From Schmidtea polychroa (lineage: Eukaryota), in assembly GCA_044892525.1 (NCBI GenBank), contig CM097887.1, forward strand, positions 80,578,397 through 80,642,396: 64,000 nt of DNA, read 5' to 3'. The notes under the pieces were generated by a model, which had not been told where the DNA came from, ran no database searches, and worked only from the letters and a program-made list of their open reading frames with translations. Positions 2,725 to 52,837 of this stretch are shown here, one piece after another. The position numbers and the translations under genes are program-made. The stretch's first letter is position 1. Each line of letters opens with the position of its first letter.

Positions 2725-4510
2725 ATATTACAGTTATAAATTATAAACATTTATAATTGATCATTTGCGGTGATTGATTTATATTTTTTGATTTAAATTT
2801 CATATTTTATGTACATAATTGGACTAGGATAAGGTAATGTCAACTAATAATGATATTTCTACGTTTGTCTAAAAGTTTGATGAGACGGGAAAATTGAAAG
2901 AAACGCAAAATAAATTTTCAGAAAATTCTAACGTTTTTTTATTTGTTTTAATTGTTAAATTAATTTATTATTATAATTGATTTTAAATATACTAAATTTT
3001 GGGCCATCAATTTTATTATCACCTTTAAATGATCAATTTTATTAATTTAATTATTTTATTCCTGTCATTAACTACTTATTAGTATTTTTTTACTACCTTA
3101 ATATTAGTATATTTTTAGCATTGTTACCTTATCCCTAGTACAAACGACGAGCTTTTGCAGAAGCAGCTTGAAGGACAACAGGAACAAGCTCGAAGTTACG
3201 AAATTGTTCGGTTGACCGGGGACATTGGTCTGAGAGATTATTCTGAATAATATAATATAAATGACAAAAGGTGCGTGGAAAAGTATGTAAAGTACAAATT
3301 TGTCGAAAATGCAAAATATTAATTAATTAATTGAACTAAAAACCCGTTAAGAAAATAAACGATTTAGATTTTTGAGGGTAGTTAGTTATAAAACCTACCA
3401 TAGAAACCCTGAACAACTATTAATAAACTTATTTTTTAAATGACAGTCGACGGATTTGTTGGGTTAAGATGGTTAAGAACAATAATGTTAGACATTATTT
3501 AATCCACAATCATTAATTATAAAGTTAGTTCTGGTAAATAAAGAAAAGTAACATCAAAATTTGTTTTTTTTGTCTTTGGTAAGGAAGAAGAAACTGAAAG
3601 TAGAAAGTGGAAAAGAGCACTAATTAGAAAATTTATCAAAGGAAGATTGAAGGCGTATCGGTCATTGTTAAAGGAAGATTATTATCATAAACAGATATTC
3701 TGTTTAATATTTGTAATAATAATAATATACATTGGTAGTGTTGATTCTTATTTATTGAACACGAGGAGTTAGATTATAATTATAATTAACCTACGTACAA
3801 TTAGCCAGTAAAAGATCAACACATATACAGGACATATACAACACATAATAAACCTTGCTCAAGCTGTGACCTGAGAAAAATTATACAAACCGTGTAAAGC
3901 TGTTTAAAGTTGCCCGAATGTCGAGGCAAATGACGGAACTCTGCAGTTGAGGACAGAGTTCAATAACATTAAATGTGGTGTGATGTTGACTTTGTTTTGT
4001 CTTATTTGATGAATGAAAATTGTGTTGGGCCAAGCTCCGAAGGTGTTGGAAAATACGAACCTAGGAAGGGATAGAGTAAAATAAAATAAAAACATATAAA
4101 AATACGAGAAACATAGGAGGAAACAAATTAAATATCCAGCAAAGAAATTAGAAAAACTAAATAAAATAACAAAACCTCTAAAGGAAAAATAAGACAAGAG
4201 GGAAGGCACCTAATAAACGACAGTAAAAGAAAAAAATAAAATAGCAGAAAATTTAAGAAAAATGAACAAAAGTAAAAGAAGAAAAACAAAATAAAAAAAA
4301 AAAAAAAATCATCCATAAGGCTAATTAAAACAAAAAATGAAGTTACAATAAAATAGCAACAAAACCACAGGAAAAACAGATAAAATAATAAAAAATAGGA
4401 AAATAAATAAAATAATAATAAAAATAGGAAAAAGTCATTAAAATACACCTGATTACATTAAAAAACATAAAAATTATAATAAACAATAATATTACATGCA
4501 AGTCGCGTCC

Positions 4511-4590
4511 TGATTGGACGAAAAGTAATATATAAAGAGCGACAAAAATCTGTAGAGTATCATTCTAACCCGAAACTACAGGTAAAATTT
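4511..4590 (+). promoter_or_regulatory. LTR promoter: inverted CCAAT box, TATA box, then a splice donor in the leader
   Basis: TGATTGG (4511), TATATAAA (4529), CAG|GTAAAA (4581/4582) inside a short duplicated motif. The same arrangement (TGATTGG, TATATAAG, duplicated motif with CAG|GTAAG) occurs in the solo LTR at ~44650-44780. Confidence 0.6.
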
Positions 4591-6842
4591 TATCCTTTAT
4601 ATAATCATTCTAACCCGAAACTCTACAGGAAAACTAAGAACCACTCGCAAGCACAGATTATTGAACCATATTCATTCATCGGATATCATATACATTTAAC
4701 GGAGATCGAATTCAGTTCAGTCGAACGAGTCTATCTAAAGAAAACTTATATTATTTTGATCTAACACCTTCGGAGATTTTTGGTAAATTATGTTTTAGAT
4801 TTTAGCATGATGATTTAAATATTTATTATGAATTTAAAAAGTCGTTTATAATTCAATAAATTTCATATTTTAAACGAAGGTGTTGCTTTCTCTCTATGAT
4901 GCTGGCGACGGCGTCCTCTGGAATCCGGGTATGATGCAGTTGAGTTTTCCGAACGTCCTACGGAGGGGAAATTTACGAATACGAACTCGAGAAATTGAAG
5001 TGATAGAACCAGCCCAGGATCCATATGAATTTAGAAACTAAAGTGATTACTTAATGAATACGAGATTTATGCTAACCAGAGTCATCATGCCCGGATTTCA
5101 AATGTCGTGGTCGCCAGGTGAACATTTATTTAATTGATTTTCTCATAATTCCATTATTTCTATATTGATTCACTGAATAATTAAATTGTATTGTTGCACA
5201 TTTATTGAGAATGGAGTTGCGATGAGACGGGTCGAGTCGTCCTTCACACCGGTCCAAGAGCAGTGGGCAGAGATGCGTACTGCCTTGGGTGGGTTGTGAG
5301 GAGCGAGGAAACCATGTGAGATTTAACAAATCAAGTAATTGATTCTTTCATCGAGTGTAATCCACCCATCTTAGTCGTCGAAAACCATCCAATGCAGAAA
5401 CTTCTGAGTGACATAGTTTGAATCAACGATACCTTGGGAACTCCAGGAGATATACCATTAAAACTATCATCAGCATTGTGTCCAATCACGTAATTAAATA
5501 ATCTTTGATTTTGAGCCATATTCGTCTTGCATTGAGAAAAGTGACTGTTAGAATGTCTGCCGGAAGGAGTTATTAATTTCGAGTTTTTACGAGAGATTCT
5601 CTGTACTAAGCCCATTTCGTATCTTACAATCTGAAGGTGCTTTGGAAGCTACACCGCCGGGAGGTTAGCGAATAGATCCATCGTCTTGCTTATCGTCGAC
5701 TCCGAGGAGACTTAATGATCGACCAACGTCTAGCCGCTGTCATTGATAATAGCTCGATTTAGACATGAACGTAAACATCTCTGGATAGTAGATTAAGACA
5801 CTGACTGTGAGTCCGAAAGAAACGGTCGCCAGCAACATCGAGTGAGCGTAGTAGACCGCCGGGAAATCGATTGATAAGATATCTGAAGCCTCAATTCCGA
5901 GCGAACGAGTTGACAGTCTTTATCTCAAAACCAATTAGTAGAGAAAAATCTAAATATAAAATCAATCTTATCTAGTAGATTCGCAATTAACCCACACAAT
6001 TAGATTCATGTGATTTCTGTGACACTCTCTCAGACTCCAACCTATCTAGAAAATCAGCCAGCGATATCATGTCTAGTGTGCAGATAGTGGATAGATTTAC
6101 ATCATAATTACATAATGGTAGCAGGGGAGATGGCTAGGCTACATGTACAATCCGATAGCGAGATTACGTCACATTGAATGGTAGAATTGCTGCCCAGTCC
6201 AAGAACACACATCGATGATAAATTGTACAATGCATGCATATGAACCGACCTGACGACATCTGTTAGCATACATAAAAAGAAAAACTAACACACCACTACT
6301 CACAAACAAGCGTCGTTATGACGACATTTATGTCGCAAGATTTAAGGTGATCAAATAGCAAATTATGATAAGACTTAAATTGAATTTTGCGGTTCTTTTG
6401 TGAAGCCGATCACGACGTTTAAAACCCAATAGTCACCAGTCATACCGAACTAGGTTTTTGCGACACAACTCGCGCGTAATTTCAGGAATATAGTAGCGCG
6501 GGGAGTGGGGATGCTATTGCTAGGGAAGGATAATTATAATAAATTCGACTGTGATAAATTAATAAAAGCACATTAAATAAAAATGGCCAATTTCAGAAAG
6601 ATAAACATAAAGTCAAAGTTATGATAAATGTATTATTTCGAGTAATTCCGTTTTCTTTTTTCTCTATCAGTATGGATGCTTGCGGACAAATGAGTGTAAA
6701 TGTTGACCAGTGATAAGGGTAAGTGGGTCATTGTCGAGTAGGATGATTGGAAATAGGGTAAAAATTGTAGTCAAAATTTGGAAACGACACGCCAACGATT
6801 TTTTTTTTAACTCTACAATTAACAAAACGTCTTGATCTTCAG

Positions 6843-7604
6843 ATGCCTGTTTCAACCGCTACGAACAAGGATCTTCGTCCATGCTTCTCCTGCGCAGATA
6901 AAAACGCAGACATAGCACAACTCCACTTATATATCGGGGCACTGAAAAAGAGAATTGATCTCTATGAAGGCACGTGGTTCTCCCCGCCACAGATGAAGGA
7001 GGAGCGCAGTAAAATTCTTCGGTTGGAACATTGCCGGGACAGCCTCCTAGAGGAGAGTCGCTGTCAAAGACTGACGATCAAGGCGCAATCGGAAGCCCTC
7101 CACAAGGTCTACACGGAGGCAGAATTGGCCAAACGGGTACGAGAATTTCCCGTCTTGGAGGCCAGCAATGTTTTTCCCACTCACCACCAAAGTACTTCCA
7201 CCGCTACAACCAGTTGTCTGGGGCACGGCTCCTATCTGCCGCCTGTTCCAGCACCGGCCTTATATAGTTGTCAGCCGCCGGTAGGTGGTCCGTCCGACCC
7301 TATCTTGGCTCCAGTTTTAGTGACATCAGTTACAGCACCCGATGCGGACAACCATCAACCACAGCGTAAAAGAAAACGGCCGACCCGAGCCGCCAAAAAT
7401 CAAAGACGTCGAGATGCAATCGCGGCTCTCGAGGCGTCGTTATCTGTGGCCAAGTCTTCTCTGGAGAAGTTATCGTCACTACCTTCTACCCCCACCAAGG
7501 AGATATTCCGGGTGATCTCGCCCGAAGGGGTCCAGCTCGTGCGAGACCGTCGGTTACCGGTCGACATCGACGAGATGATCGCCGAAGGGGAAGTTTTCCC
7601 ATAA
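6843..7604 (+). CDS. LTR-encoded 253-aa protein (CxxC + coiled coil, Arg-rich basic segment, acidic C-terminus)
   Basis: Intact in both LTRs. The N-terminal ~95 aa are conserved at protein level in the diverged solo LTR (46953-47345). AG acceptor directly before the ATG. Confidence 0.75.
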   Translation: MPVSTATNKDLRPCFSCADKNADIAQLHLYIGALKKRIDLYEGTWFSPPQMKEERSKILRLEHCRDSLLEESRCQRLTIKAQSEALHKVYTEAELAKRVREFPVLEASNVFPTHHQSTSTATTSCLGHGSYLPPVPAPALYSCQPPVGGPSDPILAPVLVTSVTAPDADNHQPQRKRKRPTRAAKNQRRRDAIAALEASLSVAKSSLEKLSSLPSTPTKEIFRVISPEGVQLVRDRRLPVDIDEMIAEGEVFP

Positions 7605-8145
7605 TTGGACATGTCGTTGACCCATCTCTCATCCGACGCGATCAAGCTCAACAATCTTTATAAATGACTTAGATGATGCGTGTTTGTACTCTCCTACGTG
7701 TTGTGATTCGGAAATTTGTGTTCATATGTATCCTCAATTTCATTAATATAATCATAGTATTCGTTGTGTTGTCCCGTAAAAGTTATAGAGTAATGAGTGA
7801 TGTCTTGATGAATGAATTGGAATGACCACTGGAGAATGTGGGTCGTCCCCTTGGACCAGGGTCGTACCGAGAATGCATGACGAGTAGGGGTAAGACCTTC
7901 TTAGGCACCGAGGAACCTGAACTGAGAGTGGGTCCGTAGTAGTCCTAAGGCAGGGGCTCACCTGCGGATCAACTCCGACCCGTGTGAGCAGCACCAACGT
8001 GGGTAGATCATCACGGGCTCACATGAGGGAATATTTGTAAATCATGCGGGTTATGTGGGGGAAGGGCCCCGAGCTAAAGGAACATGATGCCAGCTGCACT
8101 ACGAATGTCCGTTTGACTCCTCCCATATACGCGCAACATGATTTT

Positions 8146-8163
8146 TGGGGGCTCAGCCGGGAT
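8146..8163 (+). promoter_or_regulatory. Primer-binding site complementary to the tRNA-Pro 3' end
   Basis: TGGGGGCTCAGCCGGGAT matches the canonical tRNA-Pro PBS (TGGGGGCTCGTCCGGGAT) at 16/18 and lies 7 nt after the LTR end. Confidence 0.85.
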
Positions 8164-8629: not shown

Positions 8630-9109
8630 ATGTCGGAAGCTAGAAAACATCTACAACAGCTAAGCAGATTCATCGACATAGAAAACGATTCTCTAAAGAC
8701 GTTAAGAGAAAAACTGCAACAAATAGAGACCCTAGAACAACAACGCCACGATGCACCTCTGATATCAAAACAAAATTATTTAACCAATAAACTGGGAGCA
8801 ACAAACACCGATACCGACTTGTCTACCCATTACCAATGGATGCAGCAACGACTCGACGACCCCGCTCTGAACATCGAATATGTGAGAATACGCGAACAAG
8901 TAAAAACTTTGTCTCAAAGAATACGAACATCGATAGTAGAGAAAGCAGCGGTCTTAAGAACCTGTAACATTTGTAAGACGCGACCTGCCAAAATTCTAAT
9001 TCTACCGTGTGGACACCTTAGCCATTGTGACGAATGTGCCGTCAGTTTAACGCATTGTTCTTTATGTGTATGTGTGATAAAGGAGAAGCACACGATTTAC
9101 TTCAGTTAG
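8630..9109 (+). CDS. Coiled coil + C-terminal IAP/MDM2-type C3HC4 RING finger protein (putative E3 ligase)
   Basis: CNIC...ILILPCGHLSHCDECAVSLTHCSLC...IYFS at the extreme C-terminus. No BIR domain. TTTTTTTAG acceptor 2 nt before the ATG. Confidence 0.8.
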   Translation: MSEARKHLQQLSRFIDIENDSLKTLREKLQQIETLEQQRHDAPLISKQNYLTNKLGATNTDTDLSTHYQWMQQRLDDPALNIEYVRIREQVKTLSQRIRTSIVEKAAVLRTCNICKTRPAKILILPCGHLSHCDECAVSLTHCSLCVCVIKEKHTIYFS

Positions 9110-9689
9110 CACGCGATTAGCACTCGGTGAAAGAATTGATCTGATTGACGATTTGACTAAATCCTTTATGTTTAATTGATGGGTCAATAATTTTTTAGTA
9201 AATGTGTATATTGCATGTGGCTTAAGCCAAATAATGAATAGAATGTTTTGTGTGTTCATTTTATTGTGAATTCAGTAACTTTATGATAATTTTCACCATA
9301 GAGAGAGAGCATCAATAAACTTAATTTAAACAAATAATATAAAGTGGAACTAGTCCCAACATAGGGTTAAAGGGGGAATAAACCGAGCCACCTTCGGGAG
9401 GTACGTTATACAAATGCCGTTTGGGAAGGGACAACCGATCACCCCGAGTAAGAGATGTAAGGCGAGGTACCATCGCGAATATTGAAAAGTTTCTGCGGTA
9501 TGGCTGATCACCATACCAATGTAGAAATGGATCAATGCGATCGTTTTGCGTTTTGAGCAAGGGGGGAAAGGGGAAACCTTCCAAAGCGGTACAGATTAAG
9601 TCGACAAATAAAAGTAAAAATAGGAAGATGACAGTGTAGAATAAAGACAGAAAAGGAACGGAAGCATGCAGAGTTTAGAGACATTAAGG

Positions 9690-10060
9690 CCGAGCTGTTG
9701 AAAAGTCCAGCCGGTCAGGGAAAATTGAAACTGAGCTGTAAAAAGTCCAGCCAGTAGGGGATAATAAGATCGAGTTGCTGAATAGTCCAACCGGTCAGAA
9801 GAAGAAGATTGAGCTGTTGAATAGTGCCAGCCAGTCGTAAGATCGAGTTGTTGAATAGTCCAACCGGTCAGAAGAAGAAGATTGAGCTGTGAATAGTGCC
9901 AGCCAGTCGTAAGATCGAGTTGTTGAATAGTCCAACCGGTCAGAAGAAGAAGATTGAGCTGTGAATAGTGCCAGCCAGTCGTAAGATCGAGTTGTTGAAT
10001 AGTCCAACCGGTCAGGAGAAGAAGATTGAGCTGTTGAAAAGTGCCAGCCAGTCGTAAAGG
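9690..10060 (+). repeat. Tandem repeat, ~72-73 bp unit made of two related ~35 bp subunits, about 4-5 copies
   Basis: Repeated GAGCTGTTGAATAGTGCCAGCCAGTCGTAAGATC / GAGTTGTTGAATAGTCCAACCGGTCAGAAGAAGAAGATT. Confidence 0.9.
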
Positions 10061-11437: not shown

Positions 11438-13366
11438 ATGACGAATGTGGTAAAAACCGACGAATATAAAGAAAAATTTAGAGGCGAACCATTCAACGGG
11501 AATGCGAACAAGTTGGCAACGTTCATAACAAATTTTGAAGTCTATGTCGATGTGTGTAGATGGACATCAGAAGCAATTAGCAAACGGATGCCGTTGTTTT
11601 TATGTGATAGCGCATTAGAAGTGTATCTAGAAGCAAAAGAAAGAAATACGAAGTTAGACAATTGGGAAAGCATCAAAACATTTTTGAGAAAAACATTCGG
11701 AGCCAGCAAACCAATAAATCAAGCCCTAGGAGAATTAGCGAGTAGAAAACAAAGAGCAAATGAATCCATAACGTTGTATGCGAGTGAATTGCGAAGATTG
11801 GCAAAGAAGGCCATGAACGGAAACTTGCCGGAGGAAAATTTAATTGGTTATTTCATAGAAGGACTGCGCCGAGAAGAGGTAAGGGCCTCGGTGGGATGTC
11901 AAATGTGTAAAACACTAGAGGAAGCCATAGATTGGGCCACGAGATGCGAACTCCACCTCCCGGCACTAATGAATGTCATGCAAGAGGAAGGAAGAATCGC
12001 AACAGCAACGGTAAAAACTGAAAATGGAGAGAACAGCAATCATGAACCAAAAATGAATCAGTTTATACCCGGTGCGCATCAAATTTTCAAACCACCGCAA
12101 GGACGATCAAATGGGAATAACAGTGAACGCAACAACCCGAACAATGGGAATAATTTTAATAATCGACGAAACACGAACGATAACAAACAATGCCGAACAT
12201 GCGGTAAACCAGGACATTGGGATAGAGATTGTTACCGAAACGCAAATTGCAATAGGTGTGGACGACGGGGACACACGGAAAATATATGCCAATTGAGAGG
12301 ATGTTTTAATTGCGGTCAACCAGGTCATATCTCAAGAGACTGTCGAGAAAGGAGCCAACAACAACGACCACCACAGCGAAATAATAACTATGCACCAAAT
12401 CCGCAACGACAAAGTAATCCTAGTGAGGGAAAGCAAATGAATGTGATGCAAGAAATTTCACAAATGAAGCAGATGATGCAACAAATGATGAGACCGAGAC
12501 AAGAGCAAGTACCACAACAAACCCAGAATATACGCATGATGAGGAGCACCGAGAATCTTAACAATTATGAAGTGCAACAACATGCACAAGAATGGCAAAG
12601 ACTACAAGCTGAAGAAGAGAGGATAAAAAGAGAGCGAATTCAGCAGCGACAAGAACAACCATTACGAATAAATATGATGAGAATGGTAAGGGAGATAAAA
12701 GAGCAATATTGTTACAATTACGGTAAAAATCCAAGAGTTGTACCTATGAGCGAACCAGAGAAACCGAAAGAAACAATTCCAGCAGCAAAAAAGGAAAATT
12801 CAACAACATCGCTAAAAGGAAATCAGAGAATTCAGAAAATATTTTGGAAAAAGATAAAAGATAAAATCGAAAGAGAAAATGAGAAAACAAAAACAGAAGC
12901 AGAAGCGGAAAATAACGAAAAGGAAAAACAGATTAATCATCTAAATCATGATATGATACGAGGATTAGACTCAGAGGAGCTAACGATACTCGAGAACAAA
13001 AAATTAAAGAAAGTACCAAGAATGAGAAATTTACGAATTAATATGATAAGGACAACAAAGAAGGTGTTGTCAACAGATGACGATGAGGATTATGTGAGTA
13101 GCCTTGGTGGAGAAATGTTACAGTTAAATGAAAATATCGACCAACTAAGAGAAAAGATCGGAGCAGATGAGGATGAAAGTGAAAGCGACGTAACAAGCGA
13201 AAGCGAAGACGAGAATATCGAAATGAAATTGAGAAAAGAAAGAGAAGAAGCAATAAAACAAGTAAAGGAAATACTTCCAGTGGTGGTAAGAAACCAGGAA
13301 TTCATTGACATCATACCATACAGACGCTTCACACAAAGGATAATGAAACTAGAAAGAAACGAATAA
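11438..13366 (+). CDS. gag: Gag: capsid-like domain, three CCHC zinc knuckles, Q-rich and acidic/coiled-coil tail
   Basis: FNGN...FITNFE, RKQRANESITLYASELRRLA...FIEGLR, and knuckles CRTCGKPGHWDRDC, CNRCGRRGHTENIC, CFNCGQPGHISRDC. Confidence 0.92.
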   Translation: MTNVVKTDEYKEKFRGEPFNGNANKLATFITNFEVYVDVCRWTSEAISKRMPLFLCDSALEVYLEAKERNTKLDNWESIKTFLRKTFGASKPINQALGELASRKQRANESITLYASELRRLAKKAMNGNLPEENLIGYFIEGLRREEVRASVGCQMCKTLEEAIDWATRCELHLPALMNVMQEEGRIATATVKTENGENSNHEPKMNQFIPGAHQIFKPPQGRSNGNNSERNNPNNGNNFNNRRNTNDNKQCRTCGKPGHWDRDCYRNANCNRCGRRGHTENICQLRGCFNCGQPGHISRDCRERSQQQRPPQRNNNYAPNPQRQSNPSEGKQMNVMQEISQMKQMMQQMMRPRQEQVPQQTQNIRMMRSTENLNNYEVQQHAQEWQRLQAEEERIKRERIQQRQEQPLRINMMRMVREIKEQYCYNYGKNPRVVPMSEPEKPKETIPAAKKENSTTSLKGNQRIQKIFWKKIKDKIERENEKTKTEAEAENNEKEKQINHLNHDMIRGLDSEELTILENKKLKKVPRMRNLRINMIRTTKKVLSTDDDEDYVSSLGGEMLQLNENIDQLREKIGADEDESESDVTSESEDENIEMKLRKEREEAIKQVKEILPVVVRNQEFIDIIPYRRFTQRIMKLERNE

Positions 13367-13408
13367 GATCTAATACCAAACGAGGAAAAAGCGATAATAA
13401 AGAAGTAT

Positions 13409-28590: not shown

Positions 28591-28758
28591 AGATAAAGGG
28601 AAAGATAAAAAATACAAAATCGGGACCTGTATCCCAACCAAAAAATTAATGGTACAGTAAAAGTATGAAAGGGACTGTAACCCTGATTATAAAATTACCT
28701 ATAAATGTATAAGTATAAGCCGCACTGTAGCGCACTATTAATTGTAAATATTGTAGAA

Positions 28759-29448: not shown

Positions 29449-29503
29449 TTAAAGATGAATGATCAATGTAAATAATTCTAAATAAAAATTTTCGTATAGT
29501 AGT

Positions 29504-30121: not shown

Positions 30122-33119
30122 CACTGGGCAGAAATCGGCTGATGACTCTGAACATGATGGAAGAAGCTCCAATCCTGGAGATATCACTAAGAAAAATTAT
30201 ACTATATCACAGTCTAATATCCTTTCTAGATCCGATAAAGCTCCTTCAAACAGAAATGGAAGAAGCTCCAATCCGGGAAATGGCATCAAGGATAAACTAT
30301 TTTCAACATTTACTAATCTCCCTTATAGAAATAATGAAATACGATTCCTTGAATCGCCTTATGCCTCCTGCCCTGATGTATCGAATCCTAATGCTCCAAG
30401 GAAACCAGACGACTGTGAGGTGATAGATAGCAGATTTTGTCCTGCCAGGAAGATCCTGAAGAAATACGGAATCTCTTCTCCTTGTTATGATACTATTGCT
30501 CCAGAGAATGCATCCTCAGACCCGACCAGAGATACTTCTTGGAATGCCTTTTGCCCTGCTCGTAGGATTCACATCCTAAATAAAAATAACGGTAATTATA
30601 ATCAAAATTTCTATAATGATTATAATCATAAAAAGTCTATTCACGAATTAATATGCAATAATTGTGAATGTAATTTAAATAGCAAAAACTGTAATGTAAT
30701 TTTTGATAATCATAATTTTAATTTTAATTTAAATTGTAAAAACTATGAATTGAAATTAAACTGTAATAATTGTAATTTAATTAAATCTAATTCTAAATAT
30801 ACTTTCAATTTAAATAATGAAATTTTAAATCTAAAGGATAAAAATAATAATTACGAAAATGACCAAACTAATTATAATTCTAAATATACTTTCAATTTAA
30901 ATGATAAAAATTTAATTCTAAAGGATAAAAATAATAATGAAAATGTCCAAACTAATTATAATTCTAATTATACCTCCAATTTAAATGATGAAAATCTTAA
31001 TCTAAAAGACAAAAATAATAATTATGAAAATGACCTAACTAATTATAATTATGAAAAATTTTTTAAGAACAAAATTAAATATGTTATTAAAAAAATAATT
31101 ATTGATTATAATAAAATTCAAAACTCCACCGAAAGACTTCCTAATGAATTAATTAGCATTATATTTAATAATATTTCTAATTTTATTAACTTAAATAAAT
31201 TATCTATATTAAACAAAGATAAATATTTGTTTAAATATCACTTATTTAACAATGCTTTTTCTCTTAAAAATTTTTCTCGTGTTCCTTCGGAACACGAGAA
31301 AAATCGCAGCTCGCCGGCCTACGGCCGACTCGCATCTTCAAAGACAGTCACCTTCGGTGGAAATCCTGTTAGTCTTTCGCCTACCTTAGAACACTCAACT
31401 GGAACACAACCATCAAACTTCCAAGCTACTGGTACCTTTCTTACTTCTATAAACAAGCCCAATTACTTAGCTAACTCTTCAAATATCCCAACTATACCTG
31501 TAAATCCTTCAAATTACAACCTTGGAACCTCAATGAAACGTCATTATTCTGAACCTATTCCCAATGACTTCATCCATAAGCCCAAGGATCTTAAAAACCT
31601 TCCCGCAACTTATAACGATAACAATAATAAAGTAATAAAATCCTGTTTTGTTAAAAAAATCATACGTAAGGGTAAGTACACAACCCTTTACTCTATTTAT
31701 AAAAATAAAAATAAAATTAATAATTATGAGAACAATACTGATGATTCCCTCATTGCCCTTCCCCATGTTAAACGATCTCCATTAAATGATACTATTGACA
31801 ATGACTCTGATCTATCGCCTAACCACTCGTCCTCCTCTTGCTCTGAGTACATTCTTGACACTTCACACTACAGCTGTGACCTTGATGACACCATTGACCC
31901 CCTTCCAATGGATGAGTCTAATTCTCAAACCCCTCATAACCCTTCTCAATCTCTTGTAAATCCCCAGCCAAACAATGACCTTTTTAACTCGGACATAGAT
32001 GATGTGAATCTATCGAGCAGCAGTGTAGCCTCTATCGACCAAGAACCACCTCTCCAGCCCACAGCCTCTTCCTCTCCCGACAACAACACTGACCTACATC
32101 CTATGACAACTGCCTCTCTTCATAATACGCCTGAACTTATTCAATCTAAAACTACCAACGCTATTGAGCTCAGCAGTACACCTAAAGTCACCGCACCTAC
32201 TCCTTCTGAATCTGAATGCAACGAAATCCAAGAGGCATTAAGAATACAATCACAAATGGAAGTATTTAATAAAAAAATACAAGTGTTTGCGACTAATATC
32301 CCTGGCCCATCTCCTAATTATCTCACACCCATTACACTGGCCAAACACACACGCAATGTCTTCATCCCAAAAACTGCAGATGAGAGTGAACTAGACAACA
32401 AAATATTTTTCAAACTTAATGGTAGGGGTAAAATTGAATGCAGATTGAAATGCAAGACAACCCTATGCAGTCCTATTTCTGTCCATAATCGTAAAAAAAT
32501 CTTTAAACACGCATGGGACTTTCATAGATTAAAAATTGACGAAAACACACTTATTGATTGCATTCAATGCAGAGCCCCCGGTGAGAATAAATATGCGCCA
32601 AATCCTATAACCTTCAAACAAATCTATAATCACATTGCCCATTTTCAACACATAGACCAATGCGATCTTGAATATATGAGCCGCGCTGAAATACGGATAT
32701 CACCCTCCAATAACCTTACCTGCTTCAACTATAGCAAAAATCGTAAAAATTGTAAAACCACCTTCAACATTGACACCCCTCTTATGACCATTATTAACCA
32801 TATAAAGGTCAAGCATAAAAAACTTATCTTTCATCCTGACGAAGAGATATACTGCTTCTGCGGATCATGGATCCCTCATCACCATGTCCGACAACATATT
32901 CTCGAAAACCACCCTGAACCTTACGTGTATCCGGGCAATATCCCCACCCCGCCTGTGATCTCCCAAGTAATGGACAGCTCCCCCGATAATGTGAACAACC
33001 TACGCCCTATACTTGAGTCGCAAGAATTTGAGGCTACCTTCTCTGAAAGTGAAATTGTCAAACGACCTCTTCCTGATACCCTTATTTTTGGTAATAATGT
33101 TGAGAAAGAGTCGACATGA
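29880..33119 (+). CDS. N-terminal part of the NeSL-like ORF: Asn-rich repeats, F-box-like motif, Ser/Pro-rich region, about four C2H2-like zinc fingers; true start uncertain
   Basis: LPNELISIIFNNI at ~31138. CRLKC...HAWDFH, CIQC...HIAH, C...C...HIKVKH, CFCG...HILENH. In frame with the RT part across one TGA at 33117-33119. Confidence 0.65.
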   Translation: MIFIEHGEETSHYPRNTKERTHDRKININEQYIFNNQAHPTKCNKIYPLTKCLLQSSPTFKNLLPAVTQCLAELLLYIIHSTGQKSADDSEHDGRSSNPGDITKKNYTISQSNILSRSDKAPSNRNGRSSNPGNGIKDKLFSTFTNLPYRNNEIRFLESPYASCPDVSNPNAPRKPDDCEVIDSRFCPARKILKKYGISSPCYDTIAPENASSDPTRDTSWNAFCPARRIHILNKNNGNYNQNFYNDYNHKKSIHELICNNCECNLNSKNCNVIFDNHNFNFNLNCKNYELKLNCNNCNLIKSNSKYTFNLNNEILNLKDKNNNYENDQTNYNSKYTFNLNDKNLILKDKNNNENVQTNYNSNYTSNLNDENLNLKDKNNNYENDLTNYNYEKFFKNKIKYVIKKIIIDYNKIQNSTERLPNELISIIFNNISNFINLNKLSILNKDKYLFKYHLFNNAFSLKNFSRVPSEHEKNRSSPAYGRLASSKTVTFGGNPVSLSPTLEHSTGTQPSNFQATGTFLTSINKPNYLANSSNIPTIPVNPSNYNLGTSMKRHYSEPIPNDFIHKPKDLKNLPATYNDNNNKVIKSCFVKKIIRKGKYTTLYSIYKNKNKINNYENNTDDSLIALPHVKRSPLNDTIDNDSDLSPNHSSSSCSEYILDTSHYSCDLDDTIDPLPMDESNSQTPHNPSQSLVNPQPNNDLFNSDIDDVNLSSSSVASIDQEPPLQPTASSSPDNNTDLHPMTTASLHNTPELIQSKTTNAIELSSTPKVTAPTPSESECNEIQEALRIQSQMEVFNKKIQVFATNIPGPSPNYLTPITLAKHTRNVFIPKTADESELDNKIFFKLNGRGKIECRLKCKTTLCSPISVHNRKKIFKHAWDFHRLKIDENTLIDCIQCRAPGENKYAPNPITFKQIYNHIAHFQHIDQCDLEYMSRAEIRISPSNNLTCFNYSKNRKNCKTTFNIDTPLMTIINHIKVKHKKLIFHPDEEIYCFCGSWIPHHHVRQHILENHPEPYVYPGNIPTPPVISQVMDSSPDNVNNLRPILESQEFEATFSESEIVKRPLPDTLIFGNNVEKEST
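30780..31050 (+). repeat. Three imperfect ~87 bp in-frame coding repeats (Asn-rich)
   Basis: NSKYTFNLNxxxLxLKDKNNNYENDQTNY-like unit repeated three times. Confidence 0.8.
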
Positions 33120-36100
33120 TGGTCCCAACACGCAATCAAGGCATACATCTTTTCAAATGCCTTGAAAAACTCCTCTATCTTTGTAGACCCTTTCATAGGA
33201 AATGCACTTATCCAGCATAACTATGTAACTTTCTTTGCCACCTTTCCATTCTCCGAATTTGCTCAATGGAATGAGATTATCATGCCCATGTCTGATGGCA
33301 AGGACAACTGGTTCTTTTTTCTACTCGACAAACACCGTAGACTTGCCGTCCTCATTGACCCGCTTCTGGATGATAGCCTTTCTACTCACCTCCTTCTAGC
33401 TCAAAATATTCTCGAAACCATTCTTGATCTCCAAAAAATTGTTAGCCCTGTCAAAATTGAACTTCAAAACCCCGATTACCCTCGCTGCTTCATACCTACT
33501 GACTCTGCCTTCTATATATGTCACTTTATCGAACGCCTTATTAAACGTGAAAAATTAACTTGTCCTAATATACCCAATATGATAAATAATATTAAAACTA
33601 CTATAAATAATTATAATTATTGCAAACTGCCAATTGATGATGTGCGGAGATTCCGACCATTTATCAATTGTCTAATTATTAATCTTAACAATAATCTAAT
33701 AGAGTGCGATGCTGCTTTAAGTGAGATTGAGAGAATTAATGGAAGCATTAATCCTCATAAATACATCACAAAGAAAGCAGCGGACATAATTCATAAAAAC
33801 TATAAGGTTACTAAAGAACTGGTCTTTACCAAGAGACAAAAATATAAATTTGCCCCTAAAGAGGAAATCTCCAAAATTTTAAATAATGAAGTGAAAACTC
33901 ACACACCAAATATGGATAGTATCCTAAAACTCTTCGCTAGCAAAACCTCTGATTGCACCTTTGACCTTAACTATCAGTACCCAACACTCTCTGAATCCTT
34001 AACCATCACTCCCTTTGACACTGATGACATTAAAAGCATCTTCTGCCAACTTGACAATACTGCCCCTGGTACTGATAAAATATCTCTTAGCGATTGGAGA
34101 AAGATATCTCCTAACTTTGAGCTCATCCTTGCCTTATGTAACAACATCCTTCGTAATTCCAGATCTCCAGTGTGCTGGAAATCCTTTCGTACCCGACTCA
34201 TTCTTAAATCTGGTAAAGCTGAAATAAGCCACGAGGCTAACTCCTGGAGACCGATCTCAATTATGAACACTGCCTATAGGATATTTGCCTCACTAATGAA
34301 TAACCGTCTTCTTGAATGGATCAGTAACGGAAATCTCCTAACACCTAACCAAAAAGCTATCTGCGCACCGGATGGATGTGCTGAACATAATCTTATCCTC
34401 CATCTAATAAAAGACTCTTCCTATCGCAAGAAAAACGACCTACATATCATCTGGCTAGATATAGCGGATGCCTTCGGATCTATTCCGCATGAACTCATCT
34501 GGCACACTCTCTCAGAGATGGGTCTTCACAACACCACTATTGCTCTTCTTCAGGACATGTACAACAATGTACAAACTTACTTTGAATGTGAGGGAGAAAA
34601 ATCTGATTATACACCAATTTACAAAGGTGTGAAACAAGGCTGCCCCTTGTCCATGACTCTGTTCTGTCTATCCATTGACTTCATACTCCGCAGTGTCTTA
34701 CAAACTCACCCGTTTCTCTTTCATAATCACAACATTAGCATTCTTGCGTATGCCGATGACATAGTGCTTATATCTGATTCCTACTCCAATATCAAGTCGG
34801 CCCTATCTCTCACTGTCTCCCTTGCAACAAAGGTCAACCTACGCTTTAAACCCTCGAAATCTGGATACTTTCATGTTGATCACGACTGCAACTACCAACC
34901 TATTCGACTCTATGGCGAAACCCTTCCAAAAATTGATGACTCTAATATGTACAGATATCTTGGTGTTGACTTCTCCCATAAAACTAAACACTGTATCAAA
35001 GAAAGACTAGACTCCGCTATTATAGACACAAACAAAATTCTCAACTCTCATCTACATCCTTCGCAAAAAATTAATGCCTTCAAAGTATTCATCCACTCCC
35101 GCTTGAACTTTACCTTTAGAAATTGTGTCATTAACCACAACATTCTAGACTCTCCGCGCAACATCCTTCGTAACTCTGAAATACAACAATATGGATTCGA
35201 CCTGCAAATAAAACAGGGTATTAAAAGATCCATTGGAGATAAGATAATGCAACTGAATGACAACTTCTTATATGCAGCTTGCAAGCTTGGTGGTCTTGGA
35301 CTTGTATCATCTATTGACGAATACCTTATTCAAAGCATCGTACAACTTATCAGGGCTTTAAACTCTAGCGATCTTAACTTTAAGACTCTCATTACTGCTG
35401 AACTTATCGAGGCTAGGGGACAAGGAGATTTAAATGTGGCAATGTCCTGGCTGAATGGCCAACTCTCTAAAAGCTACCCAACTTTCTCCATCTTCTCAAA
35501 ATTTAAAAAATCTGCCCGTCGTCTGCTTCATAACTACGGTATATCTACCAAAATTGTAATGCTTGAGGACCTTCTACAACTCGAAATAAAATATAAGAGC
35601 CGTATCAATTACTTCTCCCTCGGTAATGTGGATAGAACCTCAGCTGAACTACACTCTATCATTGGCCTTATTCATGCTGAATGTTGGTGTGCGATGAAAT
35701 GCCAGGGCTATATGGCAAAGGCAATTAGCGAAAGCAACATCGCCGACTATTTCTTTAAAAGTGACATCCTTCCTGATGCCCAATTCCTCTTTCTTATTCG
35801 TGCACGCAACAACCTTCTAAAACTGAACTACTCACCACACCGCTTAAAAACTAATAAATCTATACTCTGCCGGCACTGCCATGCCCACCCAGAAACACCT
35901 GCACACATCTTTAATCACTGCCAAGCACGTATTAATGCAAGACGAAATAAGCATGATAATGTCCTAGAAACTGTGGCAAACTTCCTTATATCTATTAACT
36001 ATGAAGTAGACATAGAGAAAGTACCTGAGGGTACCAATTCCACCCTTAAGCCTGATCTTCTTCTAAAATCTAAGCGTAACAAATCTATCCATATCTTAGA

Positions 36101-36386
36101 CATTAAGGTTCCTTTTGACTCCAGAGAAAACTACGACAACTCTAGGAGAAATAACTATAACAAATATAAGGAACTAGGAGAGGAAATAGGTAGACTCCAT
36201 AAATGCCCACACACTCTACATGCCCTGGTAGTTGGCACCCTTGGTTCTTGGGACAAAAATAATGACTCGATACTTAAAATTATCGGCCTAACCAATAATG
36301 AAATAAAGGAACTAGCCAAAAAAGCTTGCGTAGCTGCAATCAATAGCAGCTACCACATATACCGTCAACATATATATAAAAATTAA
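33120..36386 (+). CDS. Degenerate Ulp1/C48 protease-like domain + non-LTR reverse transcriptase + CCHC + restriction-like endonuclease
   Basis: RT: APGTDKI, WRPISIMNTAYRIF, WLDIADAFGSIPH, KGVKQGCPLS, LAYADD, RYLGV. Then CRHCHAHPETPAHIFNHC, RRNKHDNV, LKPDLLL...ILDIKVPFD. Confidence 0.92.
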   Translation, partial: WSQHAIKAYIFSNALKNSSIFVDPFIGNALIQHNYVTFFATFPFSEFAQWNEIIMPMSDGKDNWFFFLLDKHRRLAVLIDPLLDDSLSTHLLLAQNILETILDLQKIVSPVKIELQNPDYPRCFIPTDSAFYICHFIERLIKREKLTCPNIPNMINNIKTTINNYNYCKLPIDDVRRFRPFINCLIINLNNNLIECDAALSEIERINGSINPHKYITKKAADIIHKNYKVTKELVFTKRQKYKFAPKEEISKILNNEVKTHTPNMDSILKLFASKTSDCTFDLNYQYPTLSESLTITPFDTDDIKSIFCQLDNTAPGTDKISLSDWRKISPNFELILALCNNILRNSRSPVCWKSFRTRLILKSGKAEISHEANSWRPISIMNTAYRIFASLMNNRLLEWISNGNLLTPNQKAICAPDGCAEHNLILHLIKDSSYRKKNDLHIIWLDIADAFGSIPHELIWHTLSEMGLHNTTIALLQDMYNNVQTYFECEGEKSDYTPIYKGVKQGCPLSMTLFCLSIDFILRSVLQTHPFLFHNHNISILAYADDIVLISDSYSNIKSALSLTVSLATKVNLRFKPSKSGYFHVDHDCNYQPIRLYGETLPKIDDSNMYRYLGVDFSHKTKHCIKERLDSAIIDTNKILNSHLHPSQKINAFKVFIHSRLNFTFRNCVINHNILDSPRNILRNSEIQQYGFDLQIKQGIKRSIGDKIMQLNDNFLYAACKLGGLGLVSSIDEYLIQSIVQLIRALNSSDLNFKTLITAELIEARGQGDLNVAMSWLNGQLSKSYPTFSIFSKFKKSARRLLHNYGISTKIVMLEDLLQLEIKYKSRINYFSLGNVDRTSAELHSIIGLIHAECWCAMKCQGYMAKAISESNIADYFFKSDILPDAQFLFLIRARNNLLKLNYSPHRLKTNKSILCRHCHAHPETPAHIFNHCQARINARRNKHDNVLETVANFLISINYEVDIEKVPEGTNSTLKPDLLLKSKRNKSIHILDIKVPFDSRENYDNSRRNNYNKYKELGEEIGRLHKCPHTLHALVVGTLGSWDKNNDSILKIIGLTNNEIKELAKKACVAAINSSYHIYRQHIYKN

Positions 36387-37557
36387 TTATACTTATATAT
36401 TTATCTTTTTGTAGCCAAAGCATCTCTTATTTATTTGTCTTCTATGGTTATTATATATCACCCCTATACAATTTTCTTTGTCTCTTGGTGAACCAGTCTT
36501 GAAAACCAGATATTGATATATAATATGTACTCAGAGCATTATCCTAATCTATTTGTGTACTATGGCTATTATCTATATTATTTACTATTATTAATCAACT
36601 ATATAAATATCTAAACTCTCTAACTCAACCAACTCTCTCTAAACTAACTTAATGACCATAATTCCTAATGTTGTAATATTATTATCCTTAATGTATTTAA
36701 TATAATATTATTTCTGTTATTGCTAATATTATTGCTATTATCTTTNNNNNNNNNNNNNNNNNNNNNNNNNNNNNNNNNNNNNNNNNNNNNNNNNNNNNNN
36801 NNNNNNNNNNNNNNNNNNNNNNNNNNNNNNNNNNNNNNNNNNNNNNNNNNNNNNNNNNNNNNNNNNNNNNNNNNNNNNNNNNNNNNNNNNNNNNNNNNNN
36901 NNNNNNNNNNNNNATTAATAATGTACTGCGTGTGCCAATCACCGAATGGGTTAATGTAGGAATCCTTGTAGGGGTTCCGCCTATTTGGTGGTCTTTTTAG
37001 TTGTTCTTATCAATACTATAATGATCTTTATTATACTATCACTACTATAATCACTAATACTACCAACTACTATCTATACTTGTCCAAACCTTTACCAACT
37101 CCTTACAATATATAATATAATAAGTATTATAATAAACGCTATATAGATCTGCAAGGGAGCCTTCCTGCCCCGACATTTATTTATTTCAGATATTACCCTG
37201 TACGATCCGGTACTCCTCTCAAGTGGCGGACCGAAAAAACTCGTCAATACTATCAATCTCCGAAAACTATACTTATGATAAAATCACCATCTACAACCTA
37301 ATCTCTTCAATCAGAACCTTACTCCTGATGCCCTAAATCTATTGATCGAGACGGTTAACTCAATTGTCAACGATAACTCAGACTTCGACAATACTACCAA
37401 TCCGATCAACTCCGCTTATCCCGTCTGTAACCACGTACAATTGCGGGAGTTTCAATTCCAGCAATAGCAGTTGAAAGATTAAAAGCTGCAGAACTCCAAG
37501 GGTGAGAAGTTCTCCCCTTTTTGGCCAAGTGGCCCGCCAATTTATTAAAATAAAATT

Positions 37558-37560
<3 letters not shown>

Positions 37561-37594
<34 letters not shown>
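37561..37594 (+). repeat. Poly(T) tract (34 nt)
   Basis: Seen directly. Could be the poly(A) tail of a minus-strand retrocopy. Confidence 0.85.
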
Positions 37595-37597
<3 letters not shown>

Positions 37598-37851
37598 TTC
37601 CGAACCTCGAGATCATGTGACATCGACCATTCATAAACTTTGTGTGTATAAATCCGGTCACCTAAAGAGGCCACTGCTTGCTTATTTTTGTCCTTTTATC
37701 TGTTTAATTAAAGTATTATTTAGTTATTTTAATTTGATGTTTGTGTAGATTTTGATTGTGGGATTAGTTGTTATACTGAAAGAAGGTACGATTCGAATGT
37801 ACGATATTATGTGAATTGCGGGACGCAATTTTAACGGGCCCCGGAGTGATT

Positions 37852-40800
37852 TGTTGGGCCAAGCTCCGAAGGTGTTGGAAAAAACGAACCTAGGAAGGGA
37901 TAGAGTAAAATAAAATAAAAACATATAAAAATACGAGAAACATAGGAGGAAACAAATTAAATATCCAGCAAAGAAATTAGAAAAACTAAATAAAATAACA
38001 AAACCTCTAAAGGAAAAATAAGACAAGAGGGAAGGCACCTAATAAACGACAGTAAAAGAAAAAAATAAAATAGCAGAAAATTTAAGAAAAATGAACAAAA
38101 GTAAAAGAAGAAAAACAAAATAAAAATAAAAAAAAAATCATCCATAAGGCTAATTAAAACAAAAAATGAAGTTACAATAAAATAGCAACAAAACCACAGG
38201 AAAAACAGATAAAATAATAAAAAATAGGAAAATAAATAAAATAATAATAAAAATAGGAAAAAGTCATTAAAATACACCTGATTACATTAAAAAACATAAA
38301 AATTATAATAAACAATAATATTACATGCAAGTCGCGTCCTGATTGGACGAAAAGTAATATATAAAGAGCGACAAAAATCTGTAGAGTATCATTCTAACCC
38401 GAAACTCTACAGGTAAAATTTTATCCTTTATATAATCATTCTAACCCGAAACTCTACAGGAAAACTAAGAACCACTCGCAAGCACAGATTATTGAACCAT
38501 ATTCATTCATCGGATATCATATACATTTAACGGAGATCGAATTCAGTTCAGTCGAACGAGTCTATCTAAAGAAAACTTATATTATTTTGATCTAACACCT
38601 TCGGAGATTTTTGGTAAATTATGTTTTAGATTTTAGCATGATGATTTAAATATTTATTATGAATTTAAAAAGTCGTTTATAATTCAATAAATTTCATATT
38701 TTAAACGAAGGTGTTGCTTTCTCTCTATGATGCTGGCGACGGCGTCCTCTGGAATCCGGGTATGATGCAGTTGAGTTTTCCGAACGTCCTACGGAGGGGA
38801 AATTTACGAATACGAACTCGAGAAATTGAAGTGATAGAACCAGCCCAGGATCCATATGAATTTAGAAACTAAAGTGATTACTTAATGAATACGAGATTTA
38901 TGCTAACCAGAGTCATCATGCCCGGATTTCAAATGTCGTGGTCGCCAGGTGAACATTTATTTAATTGATTTTCTCATAATTCCATTATTTCTATATTGAT
39001 TCACTGAATAATTAAATTGTATTGTTGCACATTTATTGAGAATGGAGTTGCGATGAGACGGGTCGAGTCGTCCTTCACACCGGTCCAAGAGCAGTGGGCA
39101 GAGATGCGTACTGCCTTGGGTGGGTTGTGAGGAGCGAGGAAACCATGTGAGATTTAACAAATCAAGTAATTGATTCTTTCATCGAGTGTAATCCACCCAT
39201 CTTAGTCGTCGAAAACCATCCAATGCAGAAACTTCTGAGTGACATAGTTTGAATCAACGATACCTTGGGAACTCCAGGAGATATACCATTAAAACTATCA
39301 TCAGCATTGTGTCCAATCACGTAATTAAATAATCTTTGATTTTGAGCCATATTCGTCTTGCATTGAGAAAAGTGACTGTTAGAATGTCTGCCGAAGGAGT
39401 TATTAATTTCGAGTTTTTACGAGAGATTCTCTGTACTAAGCCCATTTCGTATCTTACAATCTGAAGGTGCTTTGGAAGCTACACCGCCGGGAGGTTAGCG
39501 AATAGATCCATCGTCTTGCTTATCGTCGACTCCGAGGAGACTTAATGATCGACCAACGTCTAGCCGCTGTCATTGATAATAGCTCGATTTAGACATGAAC
39601 GTAAACATCTCTGGATAGTAGATTAAGACACTGACTGTGAGTCCGAAAGAAACGGTCGCCAGCAACATCGAGTGAGCGTAGTAGACCGCCGGGAAATCGA
39701 TTGATAAGATATCTGAAGCCTCAATTCTGAGCGAACGAGTTGACAGTCTTTATCTCAAAACCAATTAGTAGAGAAAAATCTAAATATAAAATCAATCTTA
39801 TCTAGTAGATTCGCAATTAACCCACACAATTAGATTCATGTGATTTCTGTGACACTCTCTCAGACTCCAACCTATCTAGAAAATCAGCCAGCGATATCAT
39901 GTCTAGTGTGCAGATAGTGGATAGATTTACATCATAATTACATAATGGTAGCAGGGGAGATGGCTAGGCTACATGTACAATCCGATAGCGAGATTACGTC
40001 ACATTGAATGGTAGAATTGCTGCCCAGTCCAAGAACACACATCGATGATAAATTGTACAATGCATGCATATGAACCGACCTGACGACATCTGTTAGCATA
40101 CATAAAAAGAAAAACTAACACACCACTACTCACAAACAAGCGTCGTTATGACGACATTTATGTCGCAAGATTTAAGGTGATCAAATAGCAAATTATGATA
40201 AGACTTAAATTGAATTTTGCGGTTCTTTTGTGAAGCCGATCACGACGTTTAAAACCCAATAGTCACCAGTCATACCGAACTAGGTTTTTGCGACACAACT
40301 CGCGCGTAATTTCAGGAATATAGTAGCGCGGGGAGTGGGGATGCTATTGCTAGGGAAGGATAATTATAATAAATTCGACTGTGATAAATTAATAAAAGCA
40401 CATTAAATAAAAATGGCCAATTTCAGAAAGATAAACATAAAGTCAAAGTTATGATAAATGTATTATTTCGAGTAATTCCGTTTTCTTTTTTCTCTATCAG
40501 TATGGATGCTTGCGGACAAATGAGTGTAAATGTTGACCAGTGATAAGGGTAAGTGGGTCATTGTCGAGTAGGATGATTGGAAATAGGGTAAAAATTGTAG
40601 TCAAAATTTGGAAACGACACGCCAACGATTTTTTTTTTAACTCTACAATTAACAAAACGTCTTGATCTTTAGATGCCTGTTTCAACCGCTACGAACAAGG
40701 ATCTTCGTCCATGCTTCTCCTGCGCAGATAAAAACGCAGACATAGCACAACTCCACTTATATATCGGGGCACTGAAAAAGAGAATTGATCTCTATGAAGG

Positions 40801-41968
40801 CACGTGGTTCTCCCCGCCACAGATGAAGGAGGAGCGCAGTAAAATTCTTCGGTTGGAACATTGCCGGGACAGCCTCCTAGAGGAGAGTCGCTGTCAAAGA
40901 CTGACGATCAAGGCGCAGTCGGAAGCCCTCCACAAGGTCTACACGGAGGCAGAATTGGCCAAACGGGTACGAGAATTTCCCGTCTTGGAGGCCAGCAATG
41001 TTTTTCCCACTCACCACCAAAGTACTTCCACCGCTACAACCAGTTGTCTGGGGCACGGCTCCTATCTGCCGCCTGTTCCAGCACCGGCCTTATATAGTTG
41101 TCAGCCGCCGGTAGGTGGTCCGTCCGACCCTATCTTGGCTCCAGTTTTAGTGACATCAGTTACAGCACCCGATGCGGACAACCATCAACCACAGCGTAAA
41201 AGAAAACGGCCGACCCGAGCCGCCAAAAATCAAAGACGTCGAGATGCAATCGCGGCTCTCGAGGCGTCGTTATCTGTGGCCAAGTCTTCTCTGGAGAAGT
41301 TATCGTCACTACCTTCTACCCCCACCAAGGAGATATTCCGGGTGATCTCGCCCGAAGGGGTCCAGCTCGTGCGAGACCGTCGGTTACCGGTCGACATCGA
41401 CGAGATGATCGCCGAAGGGGAAGTTTTCCCATAATTGGACATGTCGTTGACCCATCTCTCATCCGACGCGATCAAGCTCAACAATCTTTATAAATGACTT
41501 AGATGATGCGTGTTTGTACTCTCCTACGTGTTGTGATTCGGAAATTTGTGTTCATATGTATCCTCAATTTCATTAATATAATCATAGTATTCGTTGTGTT
41601 GTCCCGTAAAAGTTATAGAGTAATGAGTGATGTCTTGATGAATGAATTGGAATGACCACTGGAGAATGTGGGTCGTCCCCTTGGACCAGGGTCGTACCGA
41701 GAATGCATGACGAGTAGGGGTAAGACCTTCTTAGGCACCGAGGAACCTGAACTGAGAGTGGGTCCGTAGTAGTCCTAAGGCAGGGGCTCACCTGCGGATC
41801 AACTCCGACCCGTGTGAGCAGCACCAACGTGGGTAGATCATCACGGGCTCACATGAGGGAATATTTGTAAATCATGCGGGTTATGTGGGGGAAGGGCCCC
41901 GAGCTAAAGGAACATGATGCCAGCTGCACTACGAATGTCCGTTTGACTCCTCCCATATACGCCCAACA
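37852..41968 (+). repeat. 3' LTR (4117 bp)
   Basis: TGTTGGGC...GCCCAACA, followed by TSD ATTG. Confidence 0.95.
40673..41434 (+). CDS. LTR-encoded 253-aa protein, 3' LTR copy
   Basis: Translation identical to 6843-7604. Confidence 0.75.
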   Translation: MPVSTATNKDLRPCFSCADKNADIAQLHLYIGALKKRIDLYEGTWFSPPQMKEERSKILRLEHCRDSLLEESRCQRLTIKAQSEALHKVYTEAELAKRVREFPVLEASNVFPTHHQSTSTATTSCLGHGSYLPPVPAPALYSCQPPVGGPSDPILAPVLVTSVTAPDADNHQPQRKRKRPTRAAKNQRRRDAIAALEASLSVAKSSLEKLSSLPSTPTKEIFRVISPEGVQLVRDRRLPVDIDEMIAEGEVFP

Positions 41969-52819: not shown

Positions 52820-52837
52820 AAACCTCTATGAATAATA

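Follow-up and report, generated by a model that had tools for sequence, protein, structure and literature searches.

What occupies the repeat-bounded interval 4023-41968 of a 64,000-nucleotide stretch of the planarian Schmidtea polychroa (GenBank assembly GCA_044892525.1, contig CM097887.1, positions 80,578,397 to 80,642,396 of the forward strand; hereafter the window), and is it a transposon or something closer to a complex virus? An earlier note had described a young, giant long terminal repeat (LTR) element with virus-like gene content. Very probably, the interval is a damaged copy from a Burro-type family of Ty3/Gypsy elements that has lately been multiplying and in which capsid, an Env-like fusion protein and replication enzymes lie in one giant frame and are accompanied by seven selected accessory genes, likely spliced from a leader in the LTR.

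Self-comparison of the window yields one long direct repeat, 4023-8138 against 37852-41968, at 99.78% identity. The two copies are LTRs of 4,116 and 4,117 bp with TG...CA termini, they differ at 8 sites (6 substitutions and 2 indels), and ATTG stands on either side as a 4-bp target-site duplication (TSD). The primer-binding site (PBS) starts eight bases past the 5' LTR end and is an exact 18-nt complement of tRNA-Pro(TGG). The ends, the 4.1-kb LTRs with about eight differences and the intact TSD and PBS, all read from the sequence by the earlier note, are confirmed. The PBS-complement pattern has 2,164 matches in the host genome and 0 for the reversed control, and ARAGORN names the matching host genes tRNA-Pro(TGG). 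The genes of this primer tRNA form a large tandem array with a 475-bp unit at host C1:130.90-130.95 Mb. Paired TG...CA LTRs, the TSD, the tRNA PBS and the order protease, reverse transcriptase (RT), RNase H, integrase place the element in Ty3/Gypsy (Metaviridae). Rfam gave 0 matches within the window.

Is the interval a single element? An LTR-PBS probe (40 scored candidates) turned up a further 11 LTR pairs spaced at 26.2-26.5 kb, and one spaced at 16.7 kb. Ten of the 11 form the sister set used here, with their sequence taken in stretches. In all ten, colinearity with the window runs from 4023, breaks off at 29,100-30,053 and returns at 37,595-37,650; the last cassette differs from that of the window in three. 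Because the sisters skip 30054-37594, these 7,541 bp are private to the window copy and the element is 30.4 kb long. The gross length of 37,946 bp agrees with the 38 kb given before, while the net length, 30,405 bp with a 22.2-kb internal region, is slightly below the claimed ~31 kb.

The sisters carry 0-5 substitutions between their LTRs in nine of ten cases (the nine measurable), and nine of ten have a matched 4-bp TSD. With a protein probe, at least 123 places, a lower bound, match at 91% identity or more (all 123 of the 123 scored matches), and 50 of these 123 have an open frame of at least 4,700 codons. The family is young and multiplying. Twenty further copies were picked to span its diversity, down to ~70% protein identity and with synonymous divergence (dS) near saturation. 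The accessory cassette is retained through the 247-amino acid (aa) open reading frame (ORF) in 19 of them, and the last ORF is recognizable in 18; one copy has lost the 119-aa ORF together with half of the TRAF gene.

These copies bear on the possibility of a misassembly, two separate insertions or neutral host DNA between the LTRs. Several breaks and a 7.5-kb foreign insertion in the window copy would suit such an origin, but the TSD of this copy is intact, ten of ten full copies are colinear, and the cassette recurs in the 20 further copies despite their divergence. The chance of such an origin is close to nil, and misassembly or captured host DNA was rejected on the colinear sisters, the at least 123 matches and the conservation of the cassette under constraint. 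What the earlier note had named as grounds for giving up its claim, separate insertions or an accessory region unique to one copy, was not what was found: there are 11 further LTR pairs, with the cassette in all ten sisters and in the 20 further copies. Its description of the element as young, giant and virus-like is supported.

Several copies depart from the common pattern. The sister without a matched TSD (host C4:14.36 Mb) has bases after its 3' LTR that resemble the start of the PBS leader, which hints at a tandem or rearranged junction, and some copies are listed exactly one period apart. The copy with the 16.7-kb period (host C2:59.37-59.39 Mb) lacks ~10 kb, from the ubiquitin-like region to the ankyrin tail, and keeps both LTRs, gag and the accessory cassette. 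At host C3:124.88 Mb and C1:147.82 Mb, the Env-region protein is 98% identical to that of the window and the LTRs are only 75-80% identical. Because these values coexist, LTR, RING and 3' cassette modules are, judged by identity, swapped between subfamilies by recombination.

In the sisters, gag, the ubiquitin-like and Bcl-2-like segments, Env, the protease to integrase block and the ankyrins form one frame of ~4,600 aa. The gag/pol and pol/ankyrin junctions are both read through in ten of ten sisters and interrupted in the window copy. The 995-aa ankyrin ORF is the polyprotein tail in all ten, so it is no separate accessory gene; in the window copy it is split from pol and stops ~50 aa early. 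Likewise, ORFs of 327 and 111 aa in the window are one TRAF gene, which is a single 462-aa ORF in eight of ten sisters. The ORF count of the window copy is thus inflated by damage, with the frames intact in sisters, and the eight or more non-gag/pol ORFs counted before come down to seven distinct accessory genes. These are a RING ORF before gag, five genes after the polyprotein (119 aa, TRAF, 345 aa, 247 aa and a small predicted membrane protein) and a 253-aa ORF within the LTR.

The claim in the earlier note omits an Env-like glycoprotein located inside the polyprotein. In the 2,921-aa ORF of the window, Pfam places a Monjiviricetes-type (gB/chuvirus-type) fusion glycoprotein ahead of protease, RT, RNase H and integrase. 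From hydrophobic segments, Env is predicted to be flanked by a signal and a transmembrane (TM) helix, and the tail to carry another such pair. The element therefore has what defines a gB-type errantivirus, a gypsy pol with an intact gB/chuvirus-like Env that carries a predicted signal and TM. No PDB sequence match was found for Env and no usable Atlas match for the tail ectodomain. An NCBIfam AnkY match on the ankyrin part was set aside as generic ankyrin similarity (28 bits against a cut-off of 600).

Selection was measured between the window and the most divergent full copy. The ratio of nonsynonymous to synonymous substitution rates (dN/dS) is 0.02-0.19 in 18 of 20 segments. Env and integrase are the most constrained at 0.02, and the LTR ORF (0.07), RING (0.06) and TRAF (0.10) follow the same pattern. 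The last ORF is the least constrained, with dN/dS ~0.4 against a 64% allele and near 1 among near-identical copies, where there are few changes. All seven accessory genes have dN/dS below 1 and are under purifying selection. Diversifying selection on the ankyrin tail was considered from a first dN/dS near 1 (1.36 against one copy) and rejected: protein-guided alignment to 10 copies gave dN 0.00-0.21 with dS up to 2 or more, and frame breaks in the copy used for comparison are the best explanation of the first value.

What Env is for is the point on which a second reading differs from the Burro-type family proposed here. In a cell-autonomous retrotransposon, Env and cargo would act inside the cell, in membrane assembly, host-cell survival or possibly mutualism, with no infectious particle. 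The ectodomain has no furin-like R-x-K/R-R site, which would suit this, and Burro1, a related planarian element, is reported second-hand to protect stem cells through an anti-apoptotic BIR-RING protein (PMC13465017). However, Env shares the strongest constraint with integrase, the window family has no BIR, and gB-type Env does not always keep furin sites (PMC13524379). We give this reading a little less than an even chance.

The same genome holds a family that fits the description of Burro1, with a 4,791-codon frame that contains MATH and, 13.3 kb downstream, a BIR ORF. One such copy is 35.0 kb long, with an LTR of 4.77 kb and the same PBS as the window family. Its gene order is that of the window family: RING (27%), polyprotein, a homologue of the 119-aa ORF (31%), TRAF (33%), a BIR-RING gene that the window family lacks, a homologue of the 345-aa ORF (26%) and two more ORFs. 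RT-RNase H is 89% identical between the two families, and they are sisters relative to nine database homologues, which stand at 53-59%.

The 253-aa ORF in the LTR is uninterrupted over at least 249 codons in 135 of the 150 best-scoring matches, a list that favours intact copies, and is found in 12 of 12 divergent LTRs examined, at 66-76% identity and dS from 1.4 to saturated. Four of four matches inspected with their flanks, chosen from intact matches, are solo LTRs with 4-bp TSDs. Its conserved basic motif recalls the arginine-rich motifs of Rev and Tat. It has no Pfam or NCBIfam family, its best Atlas match (0.84) is unnamed, its 2 representative matches are both unrelated repetitive proteins, and a sequence look-up gave no match. 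The Burro1-type LTR holds a related frame (tblastn E 3e-5, hhalign E 6.5e-6). In that LTR (7155-8198 of the copy) there are two ORFs in the same frame, and the second, related one may need splicing or read-through because it has no early ATG.

How could so many genes be expressed from one element? Over the two families, 11 of 15 accessory ORFs have a YAG 0-6 nt upstream of their first ATG, versus 16-24% of control ATGs. The window family contributes 5 of 7, or 6 of 7 should the second Met be the start of the 247-aa ORF, and the Burro1-type copy 6 of 8. YAG is absent before the gag starts of both. The binomial P is about 1e-4 to 1e-5, overstated since orthologues share ancestry. Under a strict acceptor rule, copies comply in 22/24 cases for the LTR ORF, 12/12 for RING, 28/29 for TRAF, 29/30 for the 345-aa ORF and 22/28 for the last ORF, against 12/534 and 6/78 control ATGs. 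A candidate donor near the LTR 3' end (7889/7890) directly follows a conserved 20-nt block.

In this group a full-length RNA is usually reverse-transcribed from a tRNA-Pro primer, and integrase then inserts the product with a 4-bp TSD. Here, an unspliced ~26-kb RNA would be both genome and polyprotein message. The promoter would lie near 7,840 and leave a leader of ~50 nt, which would be spliced, likely, from the donor to an acceptor before each accessory start codon. With the promoter at that place the 253-aa ORF falls in U3, and it would form the last cistron, expressed from the 3' LTR, with a putative basic nuclear regulator of element RNA as its product. By the signal and TM segments, Env would face the lumen, with Gag and Pol left on the cytosolic side. 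The TRAF, RING, Bcl-2-like and ankyrin parts may keep the host cell alive and quiet, with ubiquitin, cell-death and immune signalling as likely targets.

A host mechanism could take the place of the LTR leader. The cassette might be an operon resolved by spliced-leader trans-splicing: its spacers measure 55-217 nt and acceptor-like sites stand immediately upstream of ATGs, both of which fit flatworm operons. Acceptors in flatworms are often common to cis- and trans-splicing, as described for parasitic species only (PMC12582326), and this too would suit an operon. Trans-splicing needs no donor in the LTR, though, and the donor consensus is kept in otherwise divergent LTRs. We regard the operon as improbable and cis-splicing from the LTR leader as the better account. 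The LTR-encoded protein, the acceptor-like YAGs and the conserved LTR donor were not found in the literature searched, which did not include the primary Burro papers (Grohme 2018, Lee 2026).

Several results weigh against the reading proposed at the outset. The 119-aa ORF never satisfies the strict acceptor rule (0/30) and the 247-aa ORF seldom does (6/28), and the per-copy counts are not independent events, since copies share ancestry. The Burro1-type LTR showed no donor at the corresponding place. Spliced RNA was not seen: there are no GT-AG joints among the matches listed, contigs of four RNA runs on 10100-30050 and four on 4023-9600, which cannot show starts or strand and speak neither for nor against splicing. 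The Bcl-2, ubiquitin-like and dUTPase calls are all below the Pfam cut-off, the last at E 0.18 between protease and RT. For the Bcl-2 fold, a single-sequence AlphaFold model reached pLDDT 51.5 and a three-sequence model 51.2, both of low confidence, with no Bcl-2 among the matches listed. No BIR domain, the part of Burro1 with a reported function, is present in any window ORF. The functions suggested for the accessory proteins come from family knowledge only.

Features of the element in the window, with position, strand and basis.
Feature	Position	Strand	Basis
Left target-site duplication, ATTG	4019..4022	.	Same 4 bases at 41969-41972
5' LTR, 4,116 bp	4023..8138	+	Self-comparison, terminal inspection
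LTR ORF, 253 aa: helical N-terminal region, Pro/Ser/Thr-rich middle, conserved basic RKRK-x-PTR motif; YAG directly before ATG	6843..7604	+	
Candidate splice donor G|GTAAG near LTR 3' end, predicted	7889..7894	+	10/10 sister 5' LTRs, 6/6 divergent LTRs
Primer-binding site, tRNA-Pro(TGG)	8146..8163	+	Exact 18-nt complement of host tRNA 3' end plus CCA
RING-finger ORF, 159 aa; IAP-type C-terminal RING	8630..9109	+	PF13920 E 2e-8; dN/dS 0.06
73-bp tandem array in gag leader; copy number differs among copies	9685..10057	+	
Gag: Retrotrans_gag, three CCHC knuckles; cut off from rest of polyprotein in window copy only	11438..13366	+	Pfam
Polyprotein segment with ubiquitin-like folds, weak	13409..15124	+	Below cut-off: ubiquitin E 0.004, PI3K_rbd E 0.003
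Likely Bcl-2-like helical domain with BH2-like motif	15629..16168	+	Bcl-2 E 0.026, Bcl-xL E 1.3; dN/dS 0.03
Env-like class III-type fusion glycoprotein; predicted signal, one TM helix; in frame before protease	16235..18064	+	PF24664 E 4e-72; dN/dS 0.02
Protease (DTG), dUTPase-like (weak), RT (YIDD), RNase H, integrase	18632..21517	+	Pfam, motifs
Polyprotein tail: two ankyrin modules, then predicted signal, ectodomain and TM	22175..25162	+	
Accessory ORF, 119 aa, no assigned family	25498..25857	+	31% to Burro1-type homologue
TRAF gene: RING, zinc fingers, coiled coil, MATH; split in two in window copy	25947..27335	+	
Accessory ORF, 345 aa, charged, likely coiled-coil	27553..28590	+	
Accessory ORF, 247 aa, charged, likely coiled-coil	28705..29448	+	
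Last accessory ORF: predicted small signal and TM protein; 3' end broken by nested insertion	29504..30053	+	
Nested non-LTR retrotransposon (RT, zinc finger, likely restriction-like endonuclease); foreign to LTR element	30054..37594	+	Sense-strand poly-T tail
Conserved segment at polypurine tract position, before 3' LTR; not purine-only	37820..37851	+	
3' LTR, 4,117 bp; holds second copy of 253-aa ORF at 40673-41434	37852..41968	+	
Right target-site duplication, ATTG	41969..41972	.	

The last accessory ORF is 202-224 aa long in the sisters, and its alleles are 21-98% identical to that of the window with signal and TM kept. No BIR-RING ORF was present between TRAF and the 345-aa ORF in 30 copies. 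In a tree whose outgroup is a single cluster and whose internal node stays open, the element TRAFs group with host-genome TRAF-like ORFs, and this names no donor. Host C2 and C4 hold single-exon TRAF-like ORFs of ~440-470 aa, 26-32% identical to the element TRAF, and many MATH exons are clustered on host C2 at 114-121 Mb.

The nested non-LTR retrotransposon belongs to a family that is itself young, in which 31 of 48 matches run at 93-100% over almost all of the 3' probe. At its 3' end stands a poly-T tract on the sense strand, of 34 T in the window and 7-35 T in six of six other copies; 5' truncation is variable and flanks are unrelated. Its two long same-strand ORFs remain separate in the three longest copies. 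The insertion in the window removed ~59 bp of target and left no TSD. A literature search found no paper on non-LTR/NeSL elements with a poly-T tail. Farther along the window, a Polinton/Maverick-like element lies between long inverted repeats (49043-64000). It encodes an A32-like ATPase, an rve integrase with a chromodomain, a 1,300-aa ORF with a polB-like motif and an IAP-type RING ORF, and it holds an unexpected TBP-domain ORF on the minus strand (51564-52076).

The family adds a map of how a giant element could express its cargo. It also allows a natural comparison. The BIR-RING gene to which the stem-cell benefit of Burro1 is ascribed is absent from it, yet it has at least 123 young copies, so other cargo (TRAF, RING, Bcl-2-like, LTR protein) may suffice. 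The predicted donor and acceptors define exact junctions, which makes the question of transposon or complex virus directly testable in planarian long-read RNA.

Among known systems, the closest is Burro. Burro/GYPSM1 are giant gypsy-like LTR elements of Schmidtea mediterranea (Jurka 2007 and Grohme 2018, via PMC6431247). Planarian Burro elements exceed 30 kb, with an internal region of up to 25 kb and a 4,873-aa polyprotein (Arkhipova and Yushenova, PMC6431247). This polyprotein carries three CCHC knuckles, MATH, ubiquitin-like and Bcl-2-like parts, an in-frame Env, a dUTPase-like part and ankyrin, and there is BIR and RING cargo (PMC6431247). The element described here has in common with it the size above 30 kb, a polyprotein near 4,600-4,900 aa, the three knuckles, the in-frame Env before the protease, and ankyrin, RING and TRAF/MATH cargo (PMC6431247). 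Bcl-2-like, ubiquitin-like and dUTPase-like matches lie where Burro would have them, at E 0.026, 0.004 and 0.18, below cut-off (PMC6431247). Unlike Burro1/GYPSM1, which has MATH inside the polyprotein and a BIR-RING (IAP) gene, the 2,921-aa ORF has no MATH and the family no such gene. The element is likely a Burro family other than Burro1, and it may be one of Burro2-4, judged by description and not by sequence of the published consensus families. The likeness in size to Ogre and Burro drawn in the earlier note holds, and with Burro the kinship goes further, to the Burro anatomy and a Burro1-type sister family. This is not a new kind of element, as its size, polyprotein and cargo types are already in print (Burro anatomy was published in 2019). 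Burro1 transcription and piRNA control have been described (PMC8532177), and one further paper mentions Burro as an obstacle to assembly (PMC11410931).

GAG-ENV-POL gB-type elements have been reported in flatworms as Smed_errantivirus_1-6 (Chary and Hayashi, PMC13524379). They and the element have in common a Ty3/gypsy pol, a gB-type Env before pol and many copies, and the Env motifs are alike by eye. An 8-residue peptide of the element's Env gave 0 matches in the supplement 2 sequence table of PMC13524379, so none of the six is the window family; the table gives no PBS, and the parts of the paper covered name no accessory genes. Plant Ogre is of the same size class and also has long LTRs, but its internal region is 11-13 kb with 1-2 extra ORFs (PMC6431247), against 22.2 kb, an Env and six internal accessory ORFs here.

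With the complex vertebrate retroviruses there is a working likeness: a predicted common donor with many acceptors, a gene inside the LTR and a basic motif recalling Rev. Those viruses have accessory genes that overlap the LTR, such as sag of mouse mammary tumour virus, nef and rev of human immunodeficiency virus and bel of foamy viruses. They differ in RT lineage, which is Ty3/gypsy in the element, and in the class and position of Env, and no sequence relation is shown. We hold it possible, though on balance unlikely, that Burro elements are complex enveloped retrovirus-like viruses of flatworms, with an accessory programme evolved independently of vertebrate retroviruses. Such viruses would combine one LTR donor serving seven acceptors, a U3-encoded Rev/Tat-like basic regulator spread genome-wide and intact in solo LTRs, captured TRAF, RING, Bcl-2 and ankyrin modulators, a swappable small surface protein and a packaged RNA of ~26 kb.

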